UHGV virus genome: UHGV-0073938
Direction: 5' to 3' (one strand)
Source: a virus
DNA: 16,304 nucleotides
Below, piece by piece: positions 1 to 16,066 of this stretch (positions are counted from its first letter, which is position 1; every line of letters begins with the position of its first letter). The notes under the pieces are model-generated. The model was not told the origin of the DNA, made no database searches, and was given only the letters and a program-made list of their open reading frames with translations. Both the position numbers and the translations under genes were made by a program.

Positions 1-62
1 TGCAGAGGTGAGAGGCTGGAACGCCTGCCGCGCTGCAATGCTTCAGGGAAAAGGAGAGTGAT

Positions 63-329
63 ATGGCTATTGCCGCAAGTTACACAATGCATCTCTATTG
101 TGACTGCCGCCAGTGTACGGAAGGTGTATATCCAGTGCCAGACTTCGGTGAGTATATAGCGTTACTGATCCGCCAGGATGATGCACGCGTGCGCGGGCGT
201 ATAAAATCGATCAGCAGAAAATGTTGCGGTAAGTGCGGCGAGAGAGTTCCAGTTAATTCATGCCCGTGTAATGGTGACTCGCAATGCTGGGTGACTAAAG
301 GCTGGCATGAAACGAAATTAATAGTGTGA
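63..329 (+). CDS. hypothetical small Cys-rich protein (possible zinc-binding), 88 aa
   Basis: ATG at 63 preceded by AGGAG (53-57). ORF has paired cysteines (CDCRQC, CCGKCG, CPC). No clear His-Asn-His arrangement, so not called an HNH endonuclease. Confidence 0.5.
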   Translation: MAIAASYTMHLYCDCRQCTEGVYPVPDFGEYIALLIRQDDARVRGRIKSISRKCCGKCGERVPVNSCPCNGDSQCWVTKGWHETKLIV

Positions 330-378
330 CATGTCACGAGTAGATTATGCATGATGAATTTGATGGGGTTTGAATACT

Positions 379-404
379 GCCGCCAACTATGGCGGCTTTA
401 TTTT
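379..404 (+). terminator. intrinsic terminator-like hairpin upstream of terminase small subunit
   Basis: GCCGCC (379-384), loop AACTAT, GGCGGC (391-396), followed by TTTATTTT (397-404). Confidence 0.5.
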
Positions 405-408
405 GCAT

Positions 409-440
409 GGTACTATTACCACAACGGTAACTATTACCAC
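409..440 (+). repeat. tandem direct repeat of ACTATTACCAC in the terS 5' region
   Basis: ACTATTACCAC occurs exactly at 412-422 and 430-440, each preceded by GGT(A), ending 8 nt before the ATG at 448. Confidence 0.5.
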
Positions 441-447
441 GGTGGTT

Positions 448-1044
448 ATGATGCCTGCTGAACCTAAAACCTATAAACGCAAATCAACGCAATTTAAGCC
501 ACTAACAGCAATGCAGGAGGCTTATTGCCAGTCATACATCAAAACGCCTGAAAACCAGACTCAGGCAGCGATTAACGCAGGATTCTCCCCAAATACAGCG
601 GCAGTTAAAGCTAGTGTCATGATGCGCGATGAACGCATTCAAAAACGGATTGCCGAGTTGATGGAGGAGCGCAACAAACGAATGCGCGTCAGTGCTGATT
701 ACGTTCTCATGCGCCTGGTGGAGATCGACCAGATGGACGTGATCGACATCCTCAACGACGATGGGAGCCTTAAACCAATCCGTGAGTGGCCGAAAATCTG
801 GCGCACTACGCTTAGTGGCTTTGATCTGTCATCGACCATCATGAACATGAACGAGGATTCGATAGAGACAATCCTCAAAAAAATTAAATGGCCTGACAAG
901 GTGAAGAACCTTGAGCTGATTGGTAAGCATGTTGATGTCAACGCGTTCAAAGAACGTCTGGATGTTAATGTGAATGTGACAATTGCTGATCGCATAGCAG
1001 CAGCCAGGAAGCGACTCAAAGAACGTCAGGATGGTAATCAGTGA
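448..1044 (+). CDS. terminase small subunit
   Basis: The ORF-track start at 370 is TTG and would read through the 379-404 hairpin; the first in-frame ATG is 448. The N-terminal region (QEAYCQSYIKTPENQTQAAINAGFS...AAVKASVMMRDERIQKRIAEL) looks like the helix-turn-helix DNA-binding region typical of small terminase subunits. Stop overlaps the next start (ATGA at 1041-1044). Confidence 0.75.
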   Translation: MMPAEPKTYKRKSTQFKPLTAMQEAYCQSYIKTPENQTQAAINAGFSPNTAAVKASVMMRDERIQKRIAELMEERNKRMRVSADYVLMRLVEIDQMDVIDILNDDGSLKPIREWPKIWRTTLSGFDLSSTIMNMNEDSIETILKKIKWPDKVKNLELIGKHVDVNAFKERLDVNVNVTIADRIAAARKRLKERQDGNQ

Positions 1045-2510
1045 CAGATACAGCGTTATCTCCTGAAGAGCAGTTGATCGAGGATATTGCAGGGTTCACT
1101 CACGATCCGCTTGGCTATGCCCTCTATGCGTTCCCGTGGGGGGAAGAGGGTACTGAACTGGCACATGCCACCGGTCCACGTCAGTGGCAGGCCGATGCGT
1201 TCCGAGAGATACGTGATCACCTGCAGAATCCAGAGACGCGCTATCAGCCGCTTATGCTGGCACGCGCTTCTGGTCACGGTATTGGTAAATCCGCATTCAT
1301 CTCAATGCTGATCAACTGGGGCATGTCCACTTGCGAGGATTGTAAGGTCGTGGTGACCGCCAACACCGACAACCAGCTACGAACGAAGACCTGGCCGGAA
1401 ATTATCAAGTGGTCGAACCTTGCTATCACGAAAGACTGGTTTACCTGTACCGCTACTGCGATGTACAGCAATGATCCTGGGCACGACAAGCGGTGGCGAG
1501 CTGACGCAATCCCCTGGTCTGAGCACAACACTGAGGCATTCGCCGGACTACACAACGAGCGCAAACGCATCATCGTGGTATTCGATGAAGCGTCGAACAT
1601 TGCGGATCTGGTGTGGGAAGTTGCTGAGGGTGCGCTTACGGACGAAGACACTGAGATTATCTGGGTGGCGTTCGGAAACCCGACGCGTAATACCGGACGT
1701 TTCCGTGAATGTTTCCGCAAGTATAAACACCGCTGGAAAACTGCGCAGATTGACAGTCGGACGGTGGAAGGTACCAACAAACAGCAGTTGCAGAAATGGG
1801 TTGATGACTACGGGGAAGACAGCGACTTCGTTAAAATCCGTGTGCGTGGCATATTCCCTGATGCATCTGAATTGCAGTTTATCCCTACCGGTCTTACTGA
1901 CGAGGCAATGAAACGGGTGGTAACCGCTGCGCAGGTTGCACATGCTCCGGTGATAATCGGCGTTGACCCGGCATACTCCGGCGTTGATGACGCTGTGATA
2001 TACCTGCGGCAGGGGCTACACAGTAAGGTGCTGTGGACTGGCAACAAGACCACTGACGATCTGATAATGGCGAAGCGTATCGCTGACTTTGAAGACCAGT
2101 ACCAGGCTGACGCAGTGTTCATCGACTTCGGTTACGGAACTGGTCTGAAGTCAATCGGTGACGGCTGGGGTCGTACATGGCAACTTGTTCCGTTTGGTGG
2201 TGCGTCTACTGACCCGCAGATGCTCAACAAGCGTGGGGAGATGTTCAACTCATGCAAGACATGGCTGAGGCTGGGCGGCATGCTTGATGACCAGGAAACA
2301 GCGGACGACCTGTCGGCGGCAGAGTACAAAGTTCGAGTGGACGGTAAAATCGTTATCGAACCGAAGGAAGATATCAAGGAGCGGCTTGGGCGTTCTCCTG
2401 GTAAAGGCGATGCGCTACTGCTGACGTTTGCGTTCCCGGTAGCCAAGAAAACTAATGACCCACGGCAGCAGCAGGGCAGGGCTATAACAGACTATGACCC
2501 ATTTGAATGA
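1041..2510 (+). CDS. terminase large subunit
   Basis: 489 aa, translationally coupled to the preceding gene. Walker A-like P-loop (ARASGHGIGKS) near the N-terminus, followed by acidic motifs consistent with ATPase and nuclease domains. Confidence 0.85.
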   Translation: MTDTALSPEEQLIEDIAGFTHDPLGYALYAFPWGEEGTELAHATGPRQWQADAFREIRDHLQNPETRYQPLMLARASGHGIGKSAFISMLINWGMSTCEDCKVVVTANTDNQLRTKTWPEIIKWSNLAITKDWFTCTATAMYSNDPGHDKRWRADAIPWSEHNTEAFAGLHNERKRIIVVFDEASNIADLVWEVAEGALTDEDTEIIWVAFGNPTRNTGRFRECFRKYKHRWKTAQIDSRTVEGTNKQQLQKWVDDYGEDSDFVKIRVRGIFPDASELQFIPTGLTDEAMKRVVTAAQVAHAPVIIGVDPAYSGVDDAVIYLRQGLHSKVLWTGNKTTDDLIMAKRIADFEDQYQADAVFIDFGYGTGLKSIGDGWGRTWQLVPFGGASTDPQMLNKRGEMFNSCKTWLRLGGMLDDQETADDLSAAEYKVRVDGKIVIEPKEDIKERLGRSPGKGDALLLTFAFPVAKKTNDPRQQQGRAITDYDPFE

Positions 2511-2513
2511 TTT

Positions 2514-3362
2514 TTACTTTTGTGTTTTTGATTTTCTTTGATAGGTGGAATTTAAATCACCATTTATATTTACTAGAGGATTATTCAATAATGTACTGAT
2601 TTCTGGATTGTTAATTCCAGTAACGCCAAGTTTCTTTACGGACTCATTAAAGTCTTGTAATGATTTTAGACCTACAAGCCCATTAGCAATTGTATTATTT
2701 GTTGCCAAAGGAATGTTTTTCTTATAGGACTCATATTCGTTTTTTAAATTTTTGTGAGTTTTTTCTAGATTTTCTAGTTTAGATGTTGTTTCATCAATAA
2801 CCTTAGATAATTCTAAAATACGAGCTTGTGCTGCGCGCAGTTCTGTCTCCCTCTCTTTCAATTCAGATGTGAGTTGTCCCATTCTGTCTTTTGAAAGAAT
2901 TATTTCCTCTTTCATGTCTTGAATGTTTTTTTCAGCGCCTGTTTTTACTTTTTCGTAAGTAATGTCTTTTTTAGCCAGCAATCTCTGTAGCCGTGTTTCA
3001 CGTTGTATTTTTCTTGCCTTCCGGTGGTTTTCGATTGAGTCATTATTATCAAGAGGCTTTGCTTGCCATACGTTAATGATATTGTTTACCCATGGTAATA
3101 GGCAGCAGATAGTAATTACAGATAAGCATGGATAAAACATAACAGTTTTCCATGTGCTGTTATCTGAGATGTATGAAATTTTATCTATTATATTTGATTT
3201 GCTAAAAAATAGATAAAGAAGTGATTTCCAGTTGAAGGCGCACCAGGACATAACAAAAGCACCAAGCACAGGGTTTTTAGCTCGATGCACGGCAGTATTG
3301 GCAGTAGATGAAAACAGCTCTTTGAACGATTCGAACATACTAATTACCTTAAAGTTTTTCAT
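2514..3362 (-). CDS. hypothetical membrane-anchored coiled-coil protein (cargo gene; candidate exclusion/defence effector)
   Basis: Minus-strand ORF in a low-GC (about 30%) segment, versus about 50% in flanking phage genes. The track start at 3434 is TTG and overlaps a terminator. ATG at 3362 has AAGG 7 nt upstream; ATG at 3338 is an alternative start. Two hydrophobic segments (VLGAFVMSWCAFNWKSLLYLFF; VMFYPCLSVITICCLLPWV) precede about 100 aa of charged heptad-like sequence (KERETELRAAQARILELSKVIDETTSKLENLEK). Confidence 0.6.
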   Translation of the reverse strand: MKNFKVISMFESFKELFSSTANTAVHRAKNPVLGAFVMSWCAFNWKSLLYLFFSKSNIIDKISYISDNSTWKTVMFYPCLSVITICCLLPWVNNIINVWQAKPLDNNDSIENHRKARKIQRETRLQRLLAKKDITYEKVKTGAEKNIQDMKEEIILSKDRMGQLTSELKERETELRAAQARILELSKVIDETTSKLENLEKTHKNLKNEYESYKKNIPLATNNTIANGLVGLKSLQDFNESVKKLGVTGINNPEISTLLNNPLVNINGDLNSTYQRKSKTQK

Positions 3363-3363
3363 G

Positions 3364-3392
3364 ATTATACCTTTAAGGTAATTTGTGGTCAT
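3364..3392 (-). promoter_or_regulatory. possible sigma70-type promoter for the cargo gene
   Basis: Minus strand reads ATGACC (3392-3387), a 17 nt spacer, then TATAAT (3369-3364). A start here would favour the ATG at 3338, which has AAGG 8 nt upstream. Sequence-only guess. Confidence 0.3.
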
Positions 3393-3397
3393 CAGGC

Positions 3398-3421
3398 AAA
3401 AAATGCCCGGACGAACCGGGC
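3398..3421 (-). terminator. intrinsic terminator (minus strand)
   Basis: Minus strand reads GCCCGG-TTCGT-CCGGGC followed by ATTTTTT (hairpin 3405-3421, T-run 3398-3403). Confidence 0.5.
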
Positions 3422-3499
3422 GAACTGGAAGCAATGAGTTATGCCTTCCGTGGCTGTACTGGTTTACAGCATGAAGTCATCGCAATGGCGTCCTGCTGT

Positions 3500-3541
3500 A
3501 AAAAGGGCGGTGATAGTCCTTCAAGGGAAACCATCACCGCC
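3500..3541 (-). terminator. terminator-like hairpin downstream of the tRNA (minus strand)
   Basis: 9 bp stem (3506-3514 with 3533-3541) and an 18 nt loop, followed on the minus strand by CTTTTT (3500-3505). The loop is large for a typical terminator. Confidence 0.35.
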
Positions 3542-3584
3542 AAGCACCTGGAACTTCTGGCATCACGGTCCTTAGGCGTGATTC

Positions 3585-3661
3585 TGGCGTGGCATGCAGT
3601 ATTCGAACCTGCGACCAACCGCTTAGAAGGCGGTTGCTCTGTCCAACTGAGCTAATGCCAC
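3585..3661 (-). tRNA. tRNA-Arg (anticodon UCU)
   Basis: Minus strand folds as a cloverleaf by hand: acceptor GTGGCAT/ATGCCAC (7 bp), D-stem GCTC/GAGC, anticodon stem ACCGC/GCGGT with loop CTTCTAA (anticodon TCT), T-loop TTCGAAT, discriminator G and encoded CCA. The fifth T-stem pair is a G-A mismatch. Confidence 0.85.
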
Positions 3662-3960
3662 AACGCTGAGAGCACTTAGCCTGTTAAGGCGCCACACTTT
3701 GTCGCGGCTCCATAAATGCTCTCATCGTTGTACCCTCGTCTCTTCCGAGGCGTCACACCGAATCGCCGGGATGGTGAATCCCCGTGCGCGGAATAAAACC
3801 GCTCGACTTGCACATTCCGGCTACCTGGTTCGTTTGCCCGAGCAAGGGAGGGTGCCCCTTAAACGTATCCAGACCGCTATCGGCGCATGTGCCATACACC
3901 GTACTGCTCAAAATAAAAGCTCACCCCACCTGTTCAATTTAACGACAAGCCAGTCAGGTT
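3662..3960. other. GC-rich ORF-less segment; possible structured RNA, tRNA leader or recombination scar
   Basis: About 300 nt with no convincing ORF on either strand. The only track ORF (3699-3962) lacks an RBS and reads like noncoding translation. Several short GC-rich inverted repeats. No second cloverleaf found by hand. Confidence 0.3.
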
Positions 3961-4075
3961 AATAACCGGAATGAACTCTTTGCTTACCTGAAAGGTAATA
4001 ATTAGTGCGTTAAATGTCAAGTATCTACGATAAATAAATCATATGTGGTTAAATTGGTAATAATTTAATTGCGTA

Positions 4076-4087
4076 CGGAGTCATTGA
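4076..4087 (+). repeat. 12 nt direct repeat CGGAGTCATTGA, copy 1 (start context of the small ORF)
   Basis: Exact match to 4297-4308; both copies end 1 nt before an ATG. Confidence 0.4.
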
Positions 4088-4088
4088 T

Positions 4089-4295
4089 ATGTGCATGGGT
4101 AGCTCACCATCAGTGCCTGCAACACCAGAAGTTCAGGCAGCACCACAGGAGCAGGATGCCGCCGTTGTTGATGCCCGCGACGAAGAAACTCGTCGCCGTC
4201 GCGCTGCTGCTGGTCGTAGTTCTACGCTGCTTACCGGTTCTCAGGGCGACACATCAACCGCTAATACCAGCGGTAAAACGCTGCTTGGTCAGTAA
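4089..4295 (+). CDS. hypothetical small protein, 68 aa, predicted disordered and charged
   Basis: ATG at 4089 with GGAG 8 nt upstream. Codon usage resembles the neighbouring phage genes. Start context CGGAGTCATTGA is repeated at the portal start. Confidence 0.45.
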   Translation: MCMGSSPSVPATPEVQAAPQEQDAAVVDARDEETRRRRAAAGRSSTLLTGSQGDTSTANTSGKTLLGQ

Positions 4296-4296
4296 C

Positions 4297-4308
4297 CGGA
4301 GTCATTGA
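4297..4308 (+). repeat. 12 nt direct repeat CGGAGTCATTGA, copy 2 (start context of the portal gene)
   Basis: Exact match to 4076-4087. Confidence 0.4.
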
Positions 4309-4309
4309 A

Positions 4310-5989
4310 ATGGCGGAAACAACTAAAGAGCGATTGAACAAACAGTTCGCACAACTTGAAAGCGAGCGTCAGTCGTTCGAGCCGCACTGGCGCGAGTTGA
4401 GTGATTACATCAACCCGCGTGGTTCCCGCTTTCTGACTTCTGAGGTCAACCGTAACGATCGACGCAATACACGTATTATTGATTCGACCGGGACTATGGC
4501 GGCGCGCACTCTCGCCAGCGGCATGATGTCAGGCATCACAAGCCCCGCGCGTCCGTGGTTTCGCCTGGCTACGCCAGATCCTGAAATGATGGATTATGGC
4601 CCTGTTAAGTTGTGGCTTGAGGCGGTGCAGAACCGCATGAACGATATGTTCAATAATTCGAATCTCTATCAGTCGCTGCCGCAGTTATACGGAAGCCTCG
4701 GCACATACAGCACTGGTGCAATGGCAGTGCTGGAGGATGACGAGGACATCATTCGCACAATGCCATTCCCGATAGGCAGTTACTACCTGGCTAACTCACC
4801 TCGTGGCAGTGTGGACACCTGTTTTCGCAAGTTCTCTATGACTGTTCGTCAGCTTGTTCAGGAGTTCGGGCTAAATAACGTCAGCGAATCCGTAAAAAGC
4901 ATGTGGGAAAGCGGAACCTACGAGAAGTGGATTGAAGTGATGCATTCGGTTTACCCGAACATTGACCGCGATACATCGAAGCTGGATAGCAAGAACAAGC
5001 CATTCAAATCGGTTTATTACGAGGTTGGTGGCGATAACGACAAGTTGTTGCGTGAGTCCGGATTCGATGAGTTTCCAATTATGGCTCCGCGCTGGGAAGT
5101 TAACGGCGAAGATGTTTATGGATCATCATGCCCGGGTATGCTGGCGCTTGGACCTGTTAAGGCATTGCAGCTTCTCCAGAAGCGCAAGTCGCAGTTGATT
5201 GATAAAGCCACCAATCCGCCGATGGTTGCTCCGACTTCCCTCAAGAATCAGCGTGCCTCCCTTCTTCCTGGCGACATCACGTATATCGATCAGATTACTG
5301 GTCAGGATGGTTTCAGGCCTGCTTATCTGGTTAACCCCAGTACAGCAGATTTGGTGGCAGACATTCAGGACACCCGTCAAATCATTAACAGCGCCTACTT
5401 TGTCGATCTGTTCATGATGTTGCAGAACATCAATACCCGCTCGATGCCTGTTGAAGCGGTGATCGAAATGAAAGAAGAAAAACTTCTGATGTTGGGGCCG
5501 GTTCTGGAGCGTCTGAACGACGAATGTCTTAATCCTCTCATTGATCGCGCTTTCTCGATGATGGTGCGTAAAAACATGCTGCCGCCACCGCCTGACGCGA
5601 TGGAAGGTATGCCCCTGAAGGTCGAATACATTTCCGTCATGGCTCAGGCGCAGAAGTCTATCGGCCTGTCCAGTCTGGCGTCTACGGTCAACTTCATTGG
5701 TCAACTTGCGCAAGCGAAACCAGAAGCTCTCGACAAACTCAACGTTGATCAGGCGATCGATGCATTCGCTGATATGTCCGGAGTGTCTCCAACCGTCATT
5801 GTTCCGCAGGAACAGGTTGAGCAGGCTCGCCAGCAACGGGCACAGCAACAACAGCAGCAACAAATGATGGCGATGGGGATGGCGGCGGCACAGGGTGCCA
5901 AGACGCTAAGCGAAGCTAAAACTTCGGATCCGAGTGTTTTGTCAGCTATGGCGAATGCAGTTAGTGGTCAGGGTGGGCAATCACAATGA
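4310..5989 (+). CDS. portal protein
   Basis: 559 aa ORF as the first large gene after the terminase pair and before scaffold-like and capsid genes. GGAG-type RBS. Gln-rich C-terminal tail. Stop overlaps the next start (ATGA at 5986-5989). Call is by size and position; no diagnostic motif verified. Confidence 0.75.
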   Translation: MAETTKERLNKQFAQLESERQSFEPHWRELSDYINPRGSRFLTSEVNRNDRRNTRIIDSTGTMAARTLASGMMSGITSPARPWFRLATPDPEMMDYGPVKLWLEAVQNRMNDMFNNSNLYQSLPQLYGSLGTYSTGAMAVLEDDEDIIRTMPFPIGSYYLANSPRGSVDTCFRKFSMTVRQLVQEFGLNNVSESVKSMWESGTYEKWIEVMHSVYPNIDRDTSKLDSKNKPFKSVYYEVGGDNDKLLRESGFDEFPIMAPRWEVNGEDVYGSSCPGMLALGPVKALQLLQKRKSQLIDKATNPPMVAPTSLKNQRASLLPGDITYIDQITGQDGFRPAYLVNPSTADLVADIQDTRQIINSAYFVDLFMMLQNINTRSMPVEAVIEMKEEKLLMLGPVLERLNDECLNPLIDRAFSMMVRKNMLPPPPDAMEGMPLKVEYISVMAQAQKSIGLSSLASTVNFIGQLAQAKPEALDKLNVDQAIDAFADMSGVSPTVIVPQEQVEQARQQRAQQQQQQQMMAMGMAAAQGAKTLSEAKTSDPSVLSAMANAVSGQGGQSQ

Positions 5990-6282
5990 CAGATTACGAA
6001 GACGATCAACTGAAAGAAGAAAACGCCCGTAAGCAACGTGACATGGCACAGCGTGAAATTGATGACATTTGCTTTGTCATGAGCAGTGAACAGGGGCGTC
6101 GCGTTGTCTGGTCGGTGCTGGAGAAAGGCCGTGTGTTTTCCGCTATCTCACCGATGGACGCTATGGCAATGGCATTTAATGAGGGGCAACGCAATCTGGC
6201 GCTGGAACTGTTTCAGCGCGTTATGGCGCATTGCCCTGAACAGTATTTGAAGATGGCCAAAGAGGCCAGTGAACAGGAGTGA
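5986..6282 (+). CDS. hypothetical head-module protein, 98 aa
   Basis: Translationally coupled to the portal gene; sits between portal and scaffold-like genes. Confidence 0.55.
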   Translation: MTDYEDDQLKEENARKQRDMAQREIDDICFVMSSEQGRRVVWSVLEKGRVFSAISPMDAMAMAFNEGQRNLALELFQRVMAHCPEQYLKMAKEASEQE

Positions 6283-6284
6283 TC

Positions 6285-6980
6285 ATGAATTTATTTGAGC
6301 GTTTGCTGTATCGCCGTCTTTGCAATGAGCAACCAGTCGATGGTGGAGCAGCTCCGGCTGCGTCAGAACCGTCAGCGCCTGCAGGTGATAACCCTGCTCC
6401 AGTTGGTGATCCATCACAACAGGAAGGTGATAAGCCACAACCTGTTGCTGATGGCGATAAACCTGCTGATGACAAAAAGCCTGAAAACGATAAGCAGGAT
6501 GAAAAAAAGGACGGCGATAAACCAGAGGGTGCGCCAGAAAAGTACGAGTTTCAGGCTGCCGAAGGCGTAGAGCTGGATACAGAAGCGTTGAAGGAATTCG
6601 AGCCGGTGGCGCGAGAACTAAACCTGACCAACGAGCAAGCGCAAAAGCTGGTTGATGCTTATCCGAAGATTCTGGCAGGTGTTCAGCAGCGCCAGGCAGA
6701 AGCCTGGCAGAAAACAACCGAGCAGTGGGCTGCGGATGTAAAAGCCGACAAAGAAATCGGTGGCGACAAGTTGATTTCTAACCTTAGCGCCGCACAGCGT
6801 GCGCTTGACCAGTTCGGGACACCTGAACTCAAAGAATATCTGAACACCACCGGGCTGGGTAATCACCCTGATCTGGTCAAAACGTTCGTGAAAATCGGAA
6901 AGGCGATGTCTGAAGATGGCATGGTCACCGGTGGTAATGAAGGCCAGCGTAGTGCGGCCGAAGTGCTCTATGGCAAATAA
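6285..6980 (+). CDS. scaffolding-like protein (acidic, Pro/Ala/Asp-rich N-terminal region, helical C-terminal region)
   Basis: Track start at 6279 is GTG; the ATG at 6285 is preferred. Composition and position (after portal, directly before the capsid gene) fit a scaffold. Ends with SAAEVLYGK. Confidence 0.55.
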   Translation: MNLFERLLYRRLCNEQPVDGGAAPAASEPSAPAGDNPAPVGDPSQQEGDKPQPVADGDKPADDKKPENDKQDEKKDGDKPEGAPEKYEFQAAEGVELDTEALKEFEPVARELNLTNEQAQKLVDAYPKILAGVQQRQAEAWQKTTEQWAADVKADKEIGGDKLISNLSAAQRALDQFGTPELKEYLNTTGLGNHPDLVKTFVKIGKAMSEDGMVTGGNEGQRSAAEVLYGK

Positions 6981-6994
6981 GAGAGGAAATGACA

Positions 6995-7981
6995 ATGGCT
7001 GTTAAAGGCTTAACTGCGCTAACGCTGGCTGACTGGGGTAAGCGCGTCGATCCAAACGGGAAAGTCGATAAGATTATCGAGCTTCTCGGTCAAACTAACC
7101 CGATCCTTCAGGATATGCCTTTTGTCGAAGGGAACCTTCCTACCGGACACCGAACCACCATTCGTTCTGGTTTACCTTCAGCTACCTGGCGTTTGCTGAA
7201 CTATGGCGTACAGCCAAGCAAATCAACCACAGTGCAGGTAACCGATTCCGTTGGCATGCTGGAAACCTATGCGGAAGTCGATAAGTCACTGGCTGATCTG
7301 AACGGCAATACCGCCGAATTCCGCCTTTCTGAAGACCGCGCATTTATTGAAGCGATGAATCAGCAGATGGCGCAGACGCTGTTTTATGGTGATTCCAGCG
7401 TTAACCCTCAGCAGTTTATGGGACTGTCCTCCCGCTATTCCAGCCTGTCTGCGGGTAATGCTCAGAACATCATTGATGCTGGTGGCACGGGTACAGATAA
7501 CACCTCAATCTGGTTAGTGGTGTGGGGCGAAAACACCGTGCATGGCATCTTCCCGAAAGGGCAGAAGGCTGGCATCCAGATGGAAGATAAAGGCCAGGTG
7601 ACACTGGAAGATGCTAATGGCGGCAAGTACGAAGGCTATCGCACCCATTACAAATGGGATAACGGACTTGCTCTGCGTGACTGGCGTTATGTTGTTCGCA
7701 TTGCAAACATCGATGTCAGCAATCTTTCAGAACCATCCTCTGCCGCAAATATTGCGAAGTTGATGGTTAAAGCACTACATCGCATTCCAAACCGTGGCAT
7801 GGGCCGCCCGGTGTTCTACATGAACCGCACTGTAGGCCAGGCTCTTGATCTGCAGTCTCTGGAGAAAACATCTCTGGCTATCAGCGTAAAAGAGACAGAA
7901 GGCGAGTGGTGGACTTCATTCCGTGGTGTACCAATCCGTGAAACTGATGCGCTTCTGGAAACAGAAGCCCGCGTGGTGTAA
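6995..7981 (+). CDS. major capsid protein
   Basis: About 330 aa ORF immediately after the scaffold-like gene. AGAGG at 6982-6986 is 8 nt from the ATG at 6995; the in-frame ATG at 6989 is too close to the RBS. Confidence 0.75.
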   Translation: MAVKGLTALTLADWGKRVDPNGKVDKIIELLGQTNPILQDMPFVEGNLPTGHRTTIRSGLPSATWRLLNYGVQPSKSTTVQVTDSVGMLETYAEVDKSLADLNGNTAEFRLSEDRAFIEAMNQQMAQTLFYGDSSVNPQQFMGLSSRYSSLSAGNAQNIIDAGGTGTDNTSIWLVVWGENTVHGIFPKGQKAGIQMEDKGQVTLEDANGGKYEGYRTHYKWDNGLALRDWRYVVRIANIDVSNLSEPSSAANIAKLMVKALHRIPNRGMGRPVFYMNRTVGQALDLQSLEKTSLAISVKETEGEWWTSFRGVPIRETDALLETEARVV

Positions 7982-7997
7982 CGCCTGTTATTAACCT

Positions 7998-8017
7998 GTG
8001 GGTCGTAACAGACCCAC
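7998..8017 (+). promoter_or_regulatory. intergenic stem-loop after the capsid gene (possible attenuator or processing site)
   Basis: GTGGGTC (7998-8004), loop GTAACA, GACCCAC (8011-8017). No T-run follows; the next RBS GGAG is at 8022-8025. Confidence 0.3.
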
Positions 8018-8032
8018 TAATGGAGAAAGAAG

Positions 8033-8470
8033 ATGATCACCGACAAACTGTTGATGTTCTCCGAAGCACAGGCGGTAACTGATACCGCGGCTTCTACTGA
8101 CGTAATCGATCTCGGTCCAATTGACGGAAAACGTCGTGATATCGGCGTTGGTTACCCGCTTGAGTTTTGGGCGCTGGTTAACACAGCCGCCGCGGCAAGC
8201 GGTGATGCAACTGTAAACATCCAGTTGCAGACGAGTGAAAATAACAGCTCATGGACCACTATTTATGATAGTGGCGCACTGGCAAAGACCGCCCTGACAG
8301 CAGGTAAACGAGTTGTTTCTGCAAAGGTGCCTGCCGGTGTTCAGCGATATCTGCGTGTTAACTACTCCGTCGCAACTGGCCCACTAACGGCTGGCGAATT
8401 CACTGCTGGTATCAGTCTTGATGTTGATGCCAATACGCCGTATCCGATCCGCTCAAAAGTAACTGGTTAA
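8033..8470 (+). CDS. hypothetical head-associated protein, 145 aa (possible capsid decoration/accessory protein)
   Basis: GGAG RBS 8 nt upstream of the ATG. Gly/Ala/Thr-rich composition. Position directly after the major capsid gene. Confidence 0.55.
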   Translation: MITDKLLMFSEAQAVTDTAASTDVIDLGPIDGKRRDIGVGYPLEFWALVNTAAAASGDATVNIQLQTSENNSSWTTIYDSGALAKTALTAGKRVVSAKVPAGVQRYLRVNYSVATGPLTAGEFTAGISLDVDANTPYPIRSKVTG

Positions 8471-8480
8471 GGTGATATCG

Positions 8481-8816
8481 ATGTCAGGTGAGAAACCAAG
8501 ATACCTCGTTCTGCGCCTCTCTCATATCCATAACACTCTGTGGCCGGAGGGGGCAGAAATCGAATACGAAGGTGAGCCTGGTAGCGCACTGGAACCTGTT
8601 AACGATGCAGCCAGACAGGCAAAAGCAAAAGTTGCAGGAAAGGTGTCAATGGCAGCAACCAGCACCAAAATCATCAACGATGTGTCAGATGATGGTGAAC
8701 TGGATAAGCTCCGTGAAGAGTACGAATTGCTCTTTAACGAGAAGCCACACCATAACGCTAAAGCCGAAACGCTCCGCGAGAAGATCGCAGATAAGCGTAA
8801 AGAACTAGGCGTGTAA
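8481..8816 (+). CDS. hypothetical protein, about 112 aa
   Basis: Track start at 8472 is GTG; the ATG at 8481 has AAGGTG 7 nt upstream. Followed by a strong terminator-like hairpin. Confidence 0.55.
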   Translation: MSGEKPRYLVLRLSHIHNTLWPEGAEIEYEGEPGSALEPVNDAARQAKAKVAGKVSMAATSTKIINDVSDDGELDKLREEYELLFNEKPHHNAKAETLREKIADKRKELGV

Positions 8817-8833
8817 GCCTCGCGAATCCGACA

Positions 8834-8854
8834 AGGGGCTTCGGCCCCTTTATT
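8834..8854 (+). terminator. intrinsic terminator inside the structural gene block
   Basis: AGGGGC (8834-8839), loop TTCG, GCCCCT (8844-8849), followed by TTTATT. Confidence 0.6.
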
Positions 8855-8866
8855 GCAGGAGTGTAT

Positions 8867-9190
8867 ATGGAACTCGTAAACCTCAAAACCGGCACTGACA
8901 GCTACCAGGATGAGAGCGGAGAAACCAGAACTCGCGATGAATACCCGTGGGGGCTGTGCATCACTCTTAATAACGACACATTGAATAAGCTGAAGGCGCA
9001 ACCTCAGGGCGTCGGAACAGAAGTGATGATAACTGCAAAAGCTGTTATTCGAGGCCTGTCTGCCAGAGAAACTGACGATGGTGTTAATCGCAGCGCCGAT
9101 CTGCAGATCACTGATATGGCGATCGCTCCTGTTTCCGGTGATGTAGAAAAATCAGCGGCTGAAACCCTCTACGGTAACGGGGGTGAGTGA
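8867..9190 (+). CDS. hypothetical protein, about 108 aa
   Basis: ATG at 8867 with AGGAG (8856-8860) upstream; the track start at 8861 is GTG. C-terminus SAAETLYGNGGE resembles the scaffold-like protein C-terminus. Confidence 0.55.
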   Translation: MELVNLKTGTDSYQDESGETRTRDEYPWGLCITLNNDTLNKLKAQPQGVGTEVMITAKAVIRGLSARETDDGVNRSADLQITDMAIAPVSGDVEKSAAETLYGNGGE

Positions 9191-9633
9191 TGGCCTCTGT
9201 AGTAGAGATCTGTAATCGTGCGCTGTCCAATATTGGCAACAGCCGCAGCATTAACAGCCTGACGGAAGCCAGCAAGGAAGCAGGGGAATGTTCGCTGCAC
9301 TTTGAGGCCTGCCGTGATGCTGTGCTTTCTGATTTTGACTGGAACTTTGCTACCAAACGCGTGGCGCTTGCAGATACGAACAATCCACCGCCTGACTGGG
9401 AATATGCGTACCAGTACCCGTCCGATTGTCTGCGCATTACTGAAATTATGCTTCCTGGTGTACGCAATCCAACAGCAGCAATGCGCGTTCAGTACGAAGT
9501 TGGTGCAGACACCAACGGAACAGGAAAGTTGATCTACACAGACCAGCCGCAGGTTAATGCTGAACAGGATATTTTATCTCCCCAGCCCAGCCGCAGGCAT
9601 GGCTCAAGTATGTCTCTCGCGTTTCAGATGTGA
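9190..9633 (+). CDS. tail tubular protein A-like (gp11-like), N-terminal part; gene appears interrupted by a frameshift
   Basis: ATG at 9190 overlaps the previous stop (TGATG). It lies directly upstream of the 823 aa gp12-sized gene. The last about 17 residues (PQPSRRHGSSMSLAFQM) look like out-of-frame translation. Similarity to T7 gp11 is from synteny and rough recollection only. Confidence 0.5.
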   Translation: MASVVEICNRALSNIGNSRSINSLTEASKEAGECSLHFEACRDAVLSDFDWNFATKRVALADTNNPPPDWEYAYQYPSDCLRITEIMLPGVRNPTAAMRVQYEVGADTNGTGKLIYTDQPQVNAEQDILSPQPSRRHGSSMSLAFQM

Positions 9634-9839
9634 ACATGTTTGATGCCATTTTTATGGAGGCGTTGGCCTGGCGTCTTGCGGCAGCTATTAACATGGCGCT
9701 GACTGGGAATGCAGACCTCGGTACGTTTGCCCTCAATATGTACAATCGCGTGATTCTTAGTGCTGGCTCGCATAGCCAGAATGAATCACAGGAACCACAG
9801 CCACCGGTTGATGAGTTTACCATTGCGAGGTTGTCCTGA
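9630..9839 (+). CDS. C-terminal continuation of the gp11-like gene in another frame
   Basis: This frame is open from 9564 and reads plausible protein (AWLKYVSRVSDVNMFDAIFMEALAWRLAAAINMAL...). No convincing RBS for an independent start. Stop overlaps the next ATG at 9839. Confidence 0.45.
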   Translation: MNMFDAIFMEALAWRLAAAINMALTGNADLGTFALNMYNRVILSAGSHSQNESQEPQPPVDEFTIARLS

Positions 9840-12774: not shown

Positions 12775-13349
12775 TGTGCGATCCGGTTATTGCTGGTGGC
12801 GCAATGCTCGCCATGAGTGGCATTCAGGCATACACCCAGTACCAACAGGGAAAGTATGCCTCGAAGGTTGCAGAAGCGAACGCAGATATAGCCACAGCTC
12901 AGGCAAATGATGCAATAAACAGAGGTAACGCTGAAGCTGAGCAACGGCGCAGAGAGACCCGACAGCGGCTTGGGACACAGGCGGCGACAATGGGGGCTAC
13001 CGGCGCTGATTTATCTACAGGTAACGCGCTGGATATATTTGGCGACACTGCCCAGTTTGGCGCTCTTGATTCGCTGACGACGGTGAATAACGCGCAACGC
13101 GAGGCTTACGGTTATCAGGTTCAGGCTGCCAACTATAAAGCAGAAGCCAGTTCAGCCCGTAAACAGGGGAATATGGGAGCAGCAACAACATTGCTCACTG
13201 CGCCTCTGAAGGCATACGGTGCGTACCAGATGTTTGGTGGGACGTGGAGTCCGTTCTCTAAAGGAAGTGCATCTGGTGGTGGAACGCCAATGTTATCTAA
13301 CTCAGGTTTTATGAATTCTGACTCCCGATTCAAAATAGGAGGTTACTGA
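12774..13349 (+). CDS. internal virion protein (gp14-like position), 191 aa
   Basis: Ala/Gly/Gln-rich sequence with a hydrophobic N-terminal segment; size close to T7 gp14. Stop overlaps the next start (TGATG). Confidence 0.5.
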   Translation: MCDPVIAGGAMLAMSGIQAYTQYQQGKYASKVAEANADIATAQANDAINRGNAEAEQRRRETRQRLGTQAATMGATGADLSTGNALDIFGDTAQFGALDSLTTVNNAQREAYGYQVQAANYKAEASSARKQGNMGAATTLLTAPLKAYGAYQMFGGTWSPFSKGSASGGGTPMLSNSGFMNSDSRFKIGGY

Positions 13350-16066
13350 TGCCTGTTGTTCCTACTACATCCGGACGCCAGGTGCAAAGTCGTGGTGTGC
13401 AAACCGGTGGTTTTCAGACCTTCGATGTTCCTCAAGCAGGTCAGGTGCTGGCGAATGTCGCAGATCAGTATGCGGTGGCATATGGTGAAGCCAGGCAGAA
13501 AGCGAATGTTGCATTGTCTCAGGATGCCATCCTTCAGCTTAATCAGCGCAGCAATGAACGTCTTTATAACCCTCAAACCGGTTTTTATGCACAACAAGGC
13601 AAAAATGCGATTGGTAAGGGGCAAGAGTACATATCTGGATTTGATCAGGATGTGGAAGAAATAGCTGCTTCATTGACTGATGAAGCAGCAAGAAATATGT
13701 TTTTGCAACAAGCCAGAACACAGAAAATTCAGTTCAGTACTGGAGTTCTCAGACATGAGATAGGGCAGACAAATGCCTATGAAGATGAGCAATATCAGGC
13801 AACGAGAAAATTATGGATACAAAATGAAGCGGATGCCTGGAATGACCCGCAAACTGCCACTTTAGCCAGAAATTCCAGAATGGTAGCCATTGCCAGATAT
13901 GGAGCTGCCAGGGGATGGTCACAAGAACGCATTCTGGAAGAAATAGAAAGTGATGATCGCAGTGCCACAGAAATGCGGGCGAAGAATTATGCCGCTGCTA
14001 ATCCGGAAGGATGGCTAAATGGTCTGTTTCAGAAAAATGATTCTGTAGGCATGGACATGCGTGCCATACGCCTTGTTGAATCAGGTGATCGTCATTTTAA
14101 TCCTGATGGTAGTATTCTTGAAGGACCGAAAACATCTTCTGGAGAGAGGGCCCAGGGGAAATACCAGTTAATGCCGGGCACAGGGAAAGAACTGGCGGCC
14201 AAGCGTGGCGTTGAATACAACCCTACGGACGAACAACAGCATGAAATGCTTGCCAGTGACTATGTAAATCAACTGTATGGTAAGTACGGCTCAGAAATAT
14301 TGACCGGAGCAGCATATAACTGGGGGATGGGTAACGTGGATAAACTGATCGCCAAAGTCGGTGATCCACGTAAAGGTGAAATATCAGAAGAAGAATTTAT
14401 CCGAAATCTTCCATCAGAAACACAAGGGTGGCTTTCCCGATATAGAAAAAATAAAACTGGAATGGATCCGCTGACTATTTATCAAATAGATAACCTTGCT
14501 AATAGTCAGATAGAAAAGCAAAGGAAGTTAATATTAGAACAGCTTGAGCCAGCTATTAATAACACCATGGCCCAGCTATATAACGGTGAGGTTCCAGATT
14601 ATATACCGGCTCAGGAGACCATCATCAGGGGGTATGGAAAAAACGCAGATAAAATAATCAATCAACTGGATATAGCGATTGATAACGCGAGAATATTCCA
14701 GGCAATTCAGTATTTGCCTCCTTCTCAGCAGCAAGAAGAAATGCAGAAAGTGAAGCCTGAGGTTAACGATCCTCACTATGCGTTAAAACTCGATGCTTAC
14801 GGAAAATTGTCTGCATTGCTTCAGAGATCAAATGAAGCAATTCAGGCGCAACGGGATTCACGCAGATTCAATGAGGCGCTGACAATAGGTGAAAAATTAG
14901 ACCCAAGCAACAAGTCAATGCAGAAAGCTGCTGATTACACAGAAATGGCGCAGAACTTTCGTATTAATGATGCCTCCACTCATGATGGGGTTGTTCGGCT
15001 TGTGGCTCAGACTGGCATAATGCCTTCGCAGGTCATCACGCAGCTTTCAGCAGTATCCCGATCCAGTAATCAGGAAGTGGTTAAAAATGCAGCGGAGCTG
15101 TTTAGTCGGTTATATGAAACAGACAATGCATCTATTGGAAATATGCCGAAGGATATGCAGGGTTTTTATCTGACTGTTAAGCAACTAACTGATTCTGGCA
15201 TGTCTGCTGATGCGGCTATCGAGCAGGCGCAGAACCTGACATACAACCAGACCGATGCTCTTAAAGCTCAATTGGCATCAACGCAGAGTTCAAAAGAGTA
15301 CAAAAATGATCGCAGCAAGGCGATGAATTCTGCTGTCAGCAATATGGCGCAGTGGTTCCGTTGGGATCCTTCTGCGGATGACCAGACGCCGGAAGCAGCT
15401 AGATTCCGTAATGACTATCAGACGCTGTATGACATTAACTACCGCGTTGCTGGTGGTAACGCTGACGTAGCGAAGCAAATGACCAACCAGCAGATAGCCC
15501 GCACCTGGAGTATCAGCGAGGTTAACGGAGATGCACAGTTTATGAAATATGCACCGGAGGCGCTTTATCAATATGGGCCGTCAGGCTGGCAGGCGGCGCA
15601 GTGGAAAGCTGAAAAAGAACGGCTGATGTACGGTGAGCGCAAAGAGATTATAACAACCAGTCCGACGTTGCTTGGGATCACGTCAGGTAATGCTCCTGTA
15701 GTTGAGACAAAAACCCCTGAGAGTCGTATTAATGGAGAATTATTCATAACCCCTGACGTGTTAACACCCCGTAATGGTGATTACGCCATTATGGTAAGAA
15801 CTAAGGATGAAAATGGCATCGATCGGGTCCAGCCGTTTTATAACAAACATGGGCGTCCTATGCGTTGGGAACCATCACTAGCAGATTGGGAACCTTATAA
15901 GAAAATGCAGCAGGAACGGGAGCAGTACGAGCAGGAAGAAATTATGCGTGGACAGGCTATACGAAACTTCAAAGACAAGCATCGCGCTCTGGATGAGCAG
16001 TATCAGCGCCTGCATAACGAACGTATGGACAAATTTAAAGATTACTTTTCGTGGGGATCTAAATAA
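13349..16066 (+). CDS. internal virion/ejection protein with lytic transglycosylase (SLT-like) domain, 905 aa
   Basis: AGGAGG RBS at 13336-13341. Residues about 235-335 (nt about 14050-14350) carry SLT-like motifs: LVESGD (candidate catalytic Glu-Ser), GKYQLMPGTG (GLMQ-like) and AAYNWGMGN (AYNxG-like). Confidence 0.75.
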   Translation: MPVVPTTSGRQVQSRGVQTGGFQTFDVPQAGQVLANVADQYAVAYGEARQKANVALSQDAILQLNQRSNERLYNPQTGFYAQQGKNAIGKGQEYISGFDQDVEEIAASLTDEAARNMFLQQARTQKIQFSTGVLRHEIGQTNAYEDEQYQATRKLWIQNEADAWNDPQTATLARNSRMVAIARYGAARGWSQERILEEIESDDRSATEMRAKNYAAANPEGWLNGLFQKNDSVGMDMRAIRLVESGDRHFNPDGSILEGPKTSSGERAQGKYQLMPGTGKELAAKRGVEYNPTDEQQHEMLASDYVNQLYGKYGSEILTGAAYNWGMGNVDKLIAKVGDPRKGEISEEEFIRNLPSETQGWLSRYRKNKTGMDPLTIYQIDNLANSQIEKQRKLILEQLEPAINNTMAQLYNGEVPDYIPAQETIIRGYGKNADKIINQLDIAIDNARIFQAIQYLPPSQQQEEMQKVKPEVNDPHYALKLDAYGKLSALLQRSNEAIQAQRDSRRFNEALTIGEKLDPSNKSMQKAADYTEMAQNFRINDASTHDGVVRLVAQTGIMPSQVITQLSAVSRSSNQEVVKNAAELFSRLYETDNASIGNMPKDMQGFYLTVKQLTDSGMSADAAIEQAQNLTYNQTDALKAQLASTQSSKEYKNDRSKAMNSAVSNMAQWFRWDPSADDQTPEAARFRNDYQTLYDINYRVAGGNADVAKQMTNQQIARTWSISEVNGDAQFMKYAPEALYQYGPSGWQAAQWKAEKERLMYGERKEIITTSPTLLGITSGNAPVVETKTPESRINGELFITPDVLTPRNGDYAIMVRTKDENGIDRVQPFYNKHGRPMRWEPSLADWEPYKKMQQEREQYEQEEIMRGQAIRNFKDKHRALDEQYQRLHNERMDKFKDYFSWGSK

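Follow-up and report, generated by a model that had tools for sequence, protein, structure and literature searches.

A single tRNA gene was called by ARAGORN in the window, by which we mean the whole 16,304-nucleotide stretch of the virus genome UHGV-0073938 analysed here. The call, a tRNA-Arg with the anticodon tct at 3585-3661 on the minus strand, coincides with the gene that an earlier sequence-only reading had placed there. The gene lies in a conserved layout that consists of terS and terL on the plus strand, a variable gene (the cargo gene) on the minus strand, the tRNA-Arg gene on the minus strand, and a small ORF followed by the portal gene on the plus strand. From 3398 onward, the match of the window to phiV10, TL-2011b, the O157 typing phages 9 and 10 and further Uetakeviruses is at 98-99%, and the region also matches prophages in about one fifth of complete E. 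coli genomes. The features of the region are collected in Table 1.

Table 1. Features of the region between terL and the portal gene, with the basis on which each was assigned
Feature	Position in the window	Strand	Basis
AT-rich cargo ORF, probable ATG start MFESFKELF..., 274 aa	2514..3338	-	phrog_4780
Predicted cargo-specific sigma-70-like promoter ATGACC-17-TATAAT, overlaps operator-like palindrome ATTACCTTAAAGGTAT	3364..3392	-	prediction
Terminator-like hairpin T2, GCCCGG-TTCGT-CCGGGC then T-run	3398..3421	-	prediction, alignment
T1-T2 spacer, ~85 nt, two hairpins	3422..3499	-	conserved across genera
Terminator-like hairpin T1, 14-bp stem GGCGGTGAT.../...ATCACCGCC then CTTTTT	3500..3541	-	conservation
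tRNA-Arg(UCU) gene, 77 nt, CCA encoded	3585..3661	-	ARAGORN, Rfam RF00005
Structured 5' leader, from predicted transcript start to tRNA	3662..3982	-	RNAalifold, fold z-score
Operator palindrome ATTACCTTTCAGGTAAG = ATTACC-N5-GGTAAG, overlaps -10	3999-3983	-	match to annotated operators
Predicted leader/tRNA promoter, -35 TTGACA (4020-4015), 17-nt spacer, -10 TACCTT (3997-3992)	3983..4020	-	conservation

The window tRNA scored 62.9 bits against Rfam RF00005 (gathering score 29, E = 7e-12), and the alignment marks one non-standard pair, in the T stem. Read as the reverse complement, the gene forms the 7/4/5/5-bp cloverleaf of RF00005 with 20 of 21 stem pairs standard. The acceptor stem is paired at all seven positions (G1-C72, U2-A71, G3-C70, G4-C69, C5-G68, A6-U67, and U7-A66), the discriminator is G73 and is followed by the encoded CCA, and the anticodon loop is CUUCUAA. 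ARAGORN, RF00005 and the reverse complement therefore bear out the complete cloverleaf, the perfect 7-bp acceptor stem and the encoded CCA of the sequence-only reading. In addition, the tertiary nucleotides U8, A14, G18, G19, U54, U55, C56, and A58 are all present. The identity elements of ArgRS are A20, C35, U36, and A or G at position 73, and the window tRNA has A20, C35, U36, and G73. The exception is the fifth pair of the T stem. The T arm reads GCAGG-UUCGAAU-ACUGC, with G53 (window 3608) across from A61 (window 3600, a T on the plus strand), whereas the G53-C61 pair of bacterial elongator tRNAs is the consensus of the phage family. The window element is a genuine argU-type elongator tRNA-Arg(UCU) gene.

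The tRNA-Arg gene is a known, annotated feature of the phiV10-like phages, and its presence here is ordinary. It occurs at the matching position in phiV10, E. coli prophages, SPN9TCW and two Klebsiella Uetakeviruses, and it is a shared backbone gene of one Uetakevirus subclade, made up of the E. coli phiV10-like, the Salmonella SPN1S-like and some Klebsiella phages. The phiV10 and window tRNAs share locus, strand and flanks and are identical at 76 of 77 bases, the sole change being C61 to A. A tRNA-Arg is already annotated in the E. coli O157 typing phages 9 and 10, phiv142-3, SPN9TCW, SPC32H/N and RefSeq E. coli prophages, and one tRNA has been reported for vB_EcoP_ZX5 (PMC9782041). In the GenBank record of phiV10, the tRNA is not listed as a feature, and its place is covered by a CDS of the opposite strand, PhiV10p04. 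This hypothetical CDS (L001:2672-2923, plus strand) corresponds to window 3383-3655 (plus strand) and is probably a mis-annotation. Literature on the function of the tRNA in phiV10, epsilon15 or SPN1S was searched for and none was found.

No tRNA was found near the portal gene of epsilon15 and 17 more distant relatives, whose portals are 19-83% identical to that of the window; the genera of the tRNA-less relatives include Citrobacter, Kluyvera, Rahnella, and Providencia. Deep relatives gathered via the portal protein to extend the covariation analysis of the tRNA proved not to have the gene at all, which made its gain or loss, rather than its conservation, the question. The tRNA is also absent from locus L060, the portal of which is about 100% identical to that of the window. 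Because L060 carries an alternative module instead, the tRNA is dispensable and is swapped among close relatives.

The host gene argU encodes the E. coli tRNA-Arg(UCU) that decodes the rare codons AGA and AGG. The comparison with host argU-type genes, proposed in the sequence-only reading, gave 83% identity between argU and the phiV10/family tRNA, with 13 differences and every stem difference compensated. Ten of the 13 make up five fully compensated stem pairs (2-71, 4-69, 6-67, 29-41, and 30-40), and the remaining three lie in the D loop and the variable loop. The two tRNAs have in common the anticodon UCU, the loop CUUCUAA, the length, the encoded CCA and G73. The phage D arm is that of argU except for one D-loop base (position 20a), and the T arm of the family consensus is identical to the argU T arm, with A61 for C61 in the window copy. 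Unlike argU, the phage gene sits between terL and the portal gene.

The next-best matches were the tRNA-Arg genes of Stx-converting lambdoid phages, which are about 82-84% identical over part of the gene; the tRNA genes upstream of stx in these phages are ileZ-argN-argO. Both cases concern a temperate E. coli phage with a rare-codon Arg tRNA beside accessory genes, whereas the Stx phage tRNAs lie in the lambdoid late-promoter region of another phage type and belong to another sequence lineage. A tRNA-Arg(UCU) about 80% identical is also present in the unrelated Klebsiella phage Kp4882-1 (L105:3416-3573), where it immediately follows a tRNA-Thr(UGU).

Across seven homologues, 146 of 147 stem cells were paired, the single failure being the 53-61 pair of the window. 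Six pairs showed double changes among these homologues, the observed covariation was reached in none of 500 shuffles, and the slid controls came nowhere near it. Within the near-identical population, pi was 0.0126 for the tRNA, compared to 0.030 for the third positions and 0.0019 for the first and second positions of the portal gene. Thirteen sites of the tRNA segregated, eight of them as singletons, several of which fell at A14, G18 or stem pairs; the common polymorphisms were located at D-loop positions 16 and 17 and in the change of U2-A71 to U2·G71. This pattern of diversity is that of purifying selection against damaging alleles, A61 among them, and the family tRNA is canonical, functional-looking and kept by such selection.

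The A61 allele itself is very rare. The comparison set comprised 80 IMG/VR loci gathered via the portal protein, together with phiV10, one E. coli prophage and SPN9TCW; C61 was observed in 81 of 82 tRNA copies of these related loci, and the window was the sole A61 copy. Among 520 tRNA copies in 508 complete E. coli genomes, none was identical to the window sequence and none had A61. Exact-pattern scans identified A61 in one IMG/VR contig and two metagenome contigs. One of the latter, OGRE01000029.1, is 100% identical to window 1-9553. The other, OGUM01000334.1 (L109), and the IMG/VR contig 3300045988_046364 (L084) are each about 99.9% identical to the window, and they are probably one contig, both being 40,891 bp long with a 99.99% match. 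The occurrence of the allele in other assemblies rules out a sequencing error as its origin, and C61 in 81 of 82 related copies, together with the lack of A61 in the 520 E. coli copies, rules out A61 as a trait of the phage tRNA family. Thus, the G-A pair noted in the sequence-only reading is present (G53·A61), but it is not a feature of the phage tRNA. A61 is a single C-to-A substitution that is real, heritable and private to one very narrow lineage.

The sister genomes bearing A61 diverge by about 0.1%, and since the allele persisted during this divergence it is not strongly counter-selected. Other single tRNA copies carry singletons of their own (A14G, G18A, C13G, G24C, G41A, and U43C, in L042, L068, L036, L044, L022, and L063), indicating that alleles with a damaging look appear again and again in prophage populations.

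The G53-C61 pair is strictly conserved; the N4 of C61 bonds to the phosphate of nucleotide 60, and C61 starts the continuous stack C61-A58-G18-R57-C56:G19, which builds the tRNA elbow (PMC7912444). The C61-to-A substitution breaks this pair, which closes the T stem and anchors the elbow between the T loop and the D loop. Against the Rfam tRNA model, A61 costs 10.4 bits (62.9 for the window, compared to 73.3 for phiV10). The predicted energy of the cloverleaf changes from -29.3 kcal/mol with C61 to -26.5 kcal/mol with A61, the predicted pairing probability of the T stem decreases from 0.94 to 0.17, and the T arm is absent from the minimum-free-energy fold of the A61 tRNA. Because of the broken G53-C61 pair, the window tRNA is most likely weakened or non-functional, as modelled here; a G·A pair at the end of a helix could retain partial function. 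A damaged allele would be tolerated, the tRNA being dispensable.

Elsewhere in the window, a 44-nt insertion at about 9556-9599 (plus strand), which ends in a repeat of CAGCCGCAGG, frameshifts an epsilon15 gp11-like tail gene. This gene encodes 201 aa in the relatives and is split into the ORFs 9187-9633 and 9630-9839 in the window. L002, L005, L051, and L084 do not have the insertion, nor does L110, the contig that otherwise equals window 1-9553, and the identity between the window and L110 falls here from 100% to 99.2%. The insertion may mark a junction of the assembly or be the scar of a recombination event. A decaying prophage as the cause of A61 is weakened as an explanation, as the frameshifting insertion is perhaps an assembly junction.

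Upstream of the tRNA, the sequence TTGACA-17-TACCTT of the predicted leader promoter was common to 15 of the 18 relative loci tested, from more than 10 host genera, and the predicted start of the leader/tRNA transcript lies near 3985. The overlapping palindrome, which contains the -10 element, matches the ATTACC-N5-GGTAAT sites that are annotated as repressor operators in epsilon15, and matching sites flank the repressor gene of phiV10. ATTACC-N5-GGTAAT is also located ahead of terS (window 416-430) and of the tail-fibre genes in phiV10 and epsilon15, which suggests that several late units may be under direct repressor control. The -10 element fits only three of the six consensus positions, and a stricter consensus promoter scan did not report the promoter at 3983-4020; a consensus scan found no sigma-70 promoter immediately upstream of the tRNA. 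We infer that the leader promoter is used.

The leader has a conserved core at about 3716-3905, and its last ~53 nt (3662-3714) belong to a tRNA-specific indel. RNAalifold on 10 relatives gave 42 pairs in the leader, 11 of them with compensatory changes, and the invariant G·U pairs fit the minus strand only. The z-score of the leader fold was -5.4. The elements seen on the minus strand at about 3716-3982 are a hairpin CGGYR-TATGGCACATG-YRCCG, a long-range helix GCGGTCYGG/CCRGGTAGCCG, and a hairpin CCTCGGAAGAGACGAGG.

In the closer tRNA-less relatives, namely epsilon15 and those loci whose portals are about 80% identical, the alignment shows that both flanks of the tRNA are kept and that window 3585-3714 (the tRNA and ~53 upstream nt) is replaced by unrelated inserts of ~70-300 nt. 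Where the tRNA has its acceptor stem, these alternative inserts have a closing stem GTTGTGGTG/CACCACAAC, and C-CCA comes after it. Structured inserts at the tRNA position were seen at L090:3823-3918 (minus strand) and also in L060, L087, L089, L097, and L098. Just upstream of the tRNA in SPN9TCW (L003, about 2900-3000, minus strand), there is a variable hairpin with the T-arm-like motifs GGTTCAATTCC and GTTCGATTC, which may be remnants of further tRNA genes. No Rfam family was found for the leader or the alternative modules, only sub-threshold matches: RyhB, matched in the T1-T2 spacer, was not significant (19 bits against a gathering score of 55, E = 0.83), and the L090 insert gave a weak full-length match to the orphan motif RF03011 (Methylophilales-1; 30 bits against a gathering score of 80, E = 0.045).

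Downstream of the tRNA, the hairpin T1 starts 44 nt from the 3' end of the gene and is kept in both tRNA-bearing and tRNA-less relatives. The hairpins themselves span 3541-3506 (T1) and 3421-3405 (T2). The homology between cargo types stops right after the T-run of T2, as seen in an alignment of 13 types and in the megablast boundary at 3398. Between the terL stop and T2 there is a hypervariable slot (window 2514-3398, with its equivalent in L001-L083). Across 81 loci, the portals of which are 99-100% identical, it holds 13 unrelated sequence types that range from 322 to 1477 bp. The type of the window occupies 6 of these 81 loci. A membrane/coiled-coil protein family fills the slot in the window, L012, L008, L013, and L028 types, the phiV10 type encodes a protein of the N4 gp49/Sf6 gp66 family, and the slot of L009 contains a Tad2-like (Thoeris anti-defence) protein. 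A DUF2829 protein is found in the slot of a Klebsiella relative.

The full ORF of the window cargo spans 2514-3434 and lies downstream of the tRNA on the minus strand; its relatives in RefSeq are called at 282 aa. Its GC content is 35%, compared to about 51% in the core. The protein has a hydrophobic N-terminal part and a coiled-coil C-terminal part and belongs to phrog_4780, a group of unknown function (E = 1e-121); no Pfam family scored above threshold. A defence annotation was considered and rejected, as the PADLOC matches (LmuB, JetC, and DruC) were weak (E = 9e-5 or worse) and covered the coiled-coil stretch only. The gene has the predicted signals of a moron, with a promoter-like sequence at 3392-3364, a hairpin at 2544-2561, a GC content of 35% and a patchy presence. 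Its promoter and palindrome are common to four related cargo types, including that of the window, which hints that these four may be under repressor control rather than expressed in the lysogen. In 61 of the 81 loci, the cargo Shine-Dalgarno sequence (AAGGTG) abuts the T-run of T2. Because this leaves no room for a promoter after T2, the cargo in these loci must be expressed through T1 and T2, which implies a regulated read-through of the two hairpins in most relatives.

As described in the sequence-only reading, the tRNA and the cargo gene are both on the minus strand and the Arg codons of the cargo include AGA; the full ORF has 4 AGA and 1 AGG among 13 Arg codons. AGA and AGG together amount to 16 per 1000 codons in the cargo and 9 in the core genes of the window (6.1 AGA and 2.9 AGG), compared to 20 in the tail gene at 13349-16066 (14.4 and 5.5), so that these codons are not peculiar to the cargo: they are concentrated in the tail genes, and this one is as dense in them or denser. 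In E. coli, AGA accounts for ~2 and AGG for ~1 per 1000 codons (about 3 together). The phage would thus use AGA (and AGG) at about three times the E. coli rate. phiV10 has 6.6 AGA and 5.5 AGG per 1000 codons (12.1), whereas the tRNA-less epsilon15 has 4.4 and 4.2 (8.6), a contrast in the expected direction that is small and based on one genome each.

These comparisons divide the earlier proposal that the tRNA supplies rare codons. A general supply of AGA/AGG decoding for the phage is plausible, but a supply specific to the cargo is weakly supported: the tRNA predates the cargo, it precedes 13 unrelated cargo types, and T1, T2 and the cargo's own promoter-like site intervene. Co-transcription of the tRNA and the window cargo as a rare-codon unit is unlikely, given the two terminator hairpins and the cargo promoter between them. 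The tRNA would instead be transcribed on the minus strand from the conserved promoter about 325 nt upstream and, with a repressor operator over that promoter, would be made mainly in lytic growth. Cleavage by RNase P and trimming of the 3' end would free the tRNA from the structured leader, and transcription would end at T1. Its likeliest role would be to provide extra decoding of AGA (and AGG), mainly in the tail genes. The tRNA is thus plausibly a backbone gene that helps the whole phage, not a companion of the AT-rich cargo.

Taken together, we consider it probable, with some reservation, that the window carries a real argU-type backbone tRNA gene, that the family copy is canonical and under selection and likely supplies AGA/AGG decoding, and that the A61 allele of the window is a weakened one.

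The context of the tRNA suggests, as a hypothesis, that it is an exchangeable part of a regulated leader, with a hotspot of accessory genes behind it. We put forward, tentatively and as an unlikely proposal at present, that Uetakeviruses have an undescribed leader RNA of ~570 nt with interchangeable acceptor-stem-plus-CCA modules, an operator-overlapped promoter and two terminators, which would control the accessory/anti-defence slot, and in which the tRNA would double as a cis-acting processing or insulating element. Such a leader might act by antitermination, in the manner of a put-like or attenuator-type device. The c4 RNA of P1/P7 and the CI RNA of P4 are phage regulatory RNAs that are processed by RNase P and embedded in leaders. 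Like these, the present locus has a tRNA-like or acceptor-stem-plus-CCA module in a leader, a predicted repressor-controlled promoter upstream and accessory genes downstream. Unlike these, it shows no sequence or Rfam match to them, yielded no target sites and has a complete, decodable tRNA.

Somewhat less likely still is that the tRNA is chiefly cis-acting, an interchangeable, RNase P-processed leader module that steers the read-through of T1 and T2, in which case a T-arm mutation would matter little because decoding would be secondary. The tRNA-less relatives that keep both flanks around other inserts with a stem and C-CCA, the swap among near-identical phages seen in L060, the covariation-supported minus-strand structure of the leader, and the 61 of 81 loci in which the position of the Shine-Dalgarno sequence points to expression via T1 and T2 all speak for it. 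However, the features for charging and decoding (the argU loop, the ArgRS elements and the compensated stems) are all kept, which would be needless for a processing signal. In addition, no antitermination factor or mechanism was identified and no Rfam family matched.

Our preferred reading, in which the tRNA decodes, also has to be weighed against a counter-defence device that replaces a host tRNA-Arg(UCU) depleted by a tRNA-cleaving defence system or toxin, an idea of the sequence-only reading to which we give a rather small chance. We know of no defence that is specific for tRNA-Arg(UCU) and of no cognate nuclease for the phage tRNA-Arg(UCU). No such defence was found in the literature examined, the OLD tRNase paper does not mention tRNA-Arg, and many relatives that infect similar hosts lack the tRNA. 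There are precedents among other phage tRNAs (PMC10264068; PMC11555353), the adjoining slot has the Tad2-like gene in L009 and the DUF2829 protein in the Klebsiella relative, and the leader promoter is predicted to be active in lytic growth. As with the evasion tRNAs of T5 and the mycobacteriophages, the window gene is a phage copy of a host tRNA species with probable lytic expression (PMC10264068; PMC11555353). Phage tRNAs that evade anticodon nucleases differ from the host isoacceptor in the anticodon loop (PMC10264068), whereas the anticodon loop of the window tRNA is unaltered. Loop-directed nucleases that cut argU would cut the phage tRNA as well, since both have the loop CUUCUAA, and this identity speaks against the replacement of a targeted host tRNA.

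That A61 is adaptive, through escape from a factor that recognizes the T loop or through conversion of the tRNA into a non-translating regulatory RNA, we regard as very improbable. The allele is in at least two distinct genomes and was thus transmitted, and the N6 of adenine could in principle replace the N4 of C61 as the hydrogen-bond donor to phosphate 60 (inferred from PMC7912444). Conversely, roughly 3 copies in more than 600 have it, which agree at about 99.9% across the compared kilobases, and no change accompanies it at G53 or elsewhere in the tRNA. The A14G, G18A and stem-mismatch singletons are scattered in other copies, as mutational noise predicts.

The least credible explanation is a former integration site, either an attP-type fragment or a host gene acquired by aberrant excision: the phage tRNA is argU-like and argU of E. 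coli K-12 hosts prophage integration, the cryptic prophage DLP12 beginning inside it, but the phage gene is full length, lies between terL and the portal gene ~24 kb from the phiV10 integrase (26927-28177), has neither an adjacent integrase nor a tRNA 3' fragment as crossover core, and differs from argU at 13 positions, which excludes a recent capture from E. coli. Moreover, the sibling phage ZX5 integrates at the 3' end of guaA via an attP adjoining its integrase (PMC9782041). The earlier suggestion of an old integration or recombination site is accordingly not supported for integration but partly right for recombination, as the conserved flank of a recombination hotspot includes the tRNA, which is exchanged as a module in its own right.

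With the decoding tRNA and its weakened window allele as our preferred reading, the finding of the tRNA adds little by itself, because sibling phages and hundreds of E. coli prophages already have the gene annotated, and the odd pair is a rare mutant allele. It is a caution that relatives should be consulted before a biological meaning is given to a non-canonical pair from one genome. The natural C61A variant could be used to test the dependence of a temperate phage on its own tRNA. Of greater importance are the surroundings: the gap between terL and the portal gene holds an unannotated structured RNA with swappable modules and, downstream of it, a slot with at least 13 unrelated small genes, where new phage accessory functions and a new RNA-based control element could conveniently be sought. 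Both the leader RNA and the hotspot of cargo genes merit a separate look.
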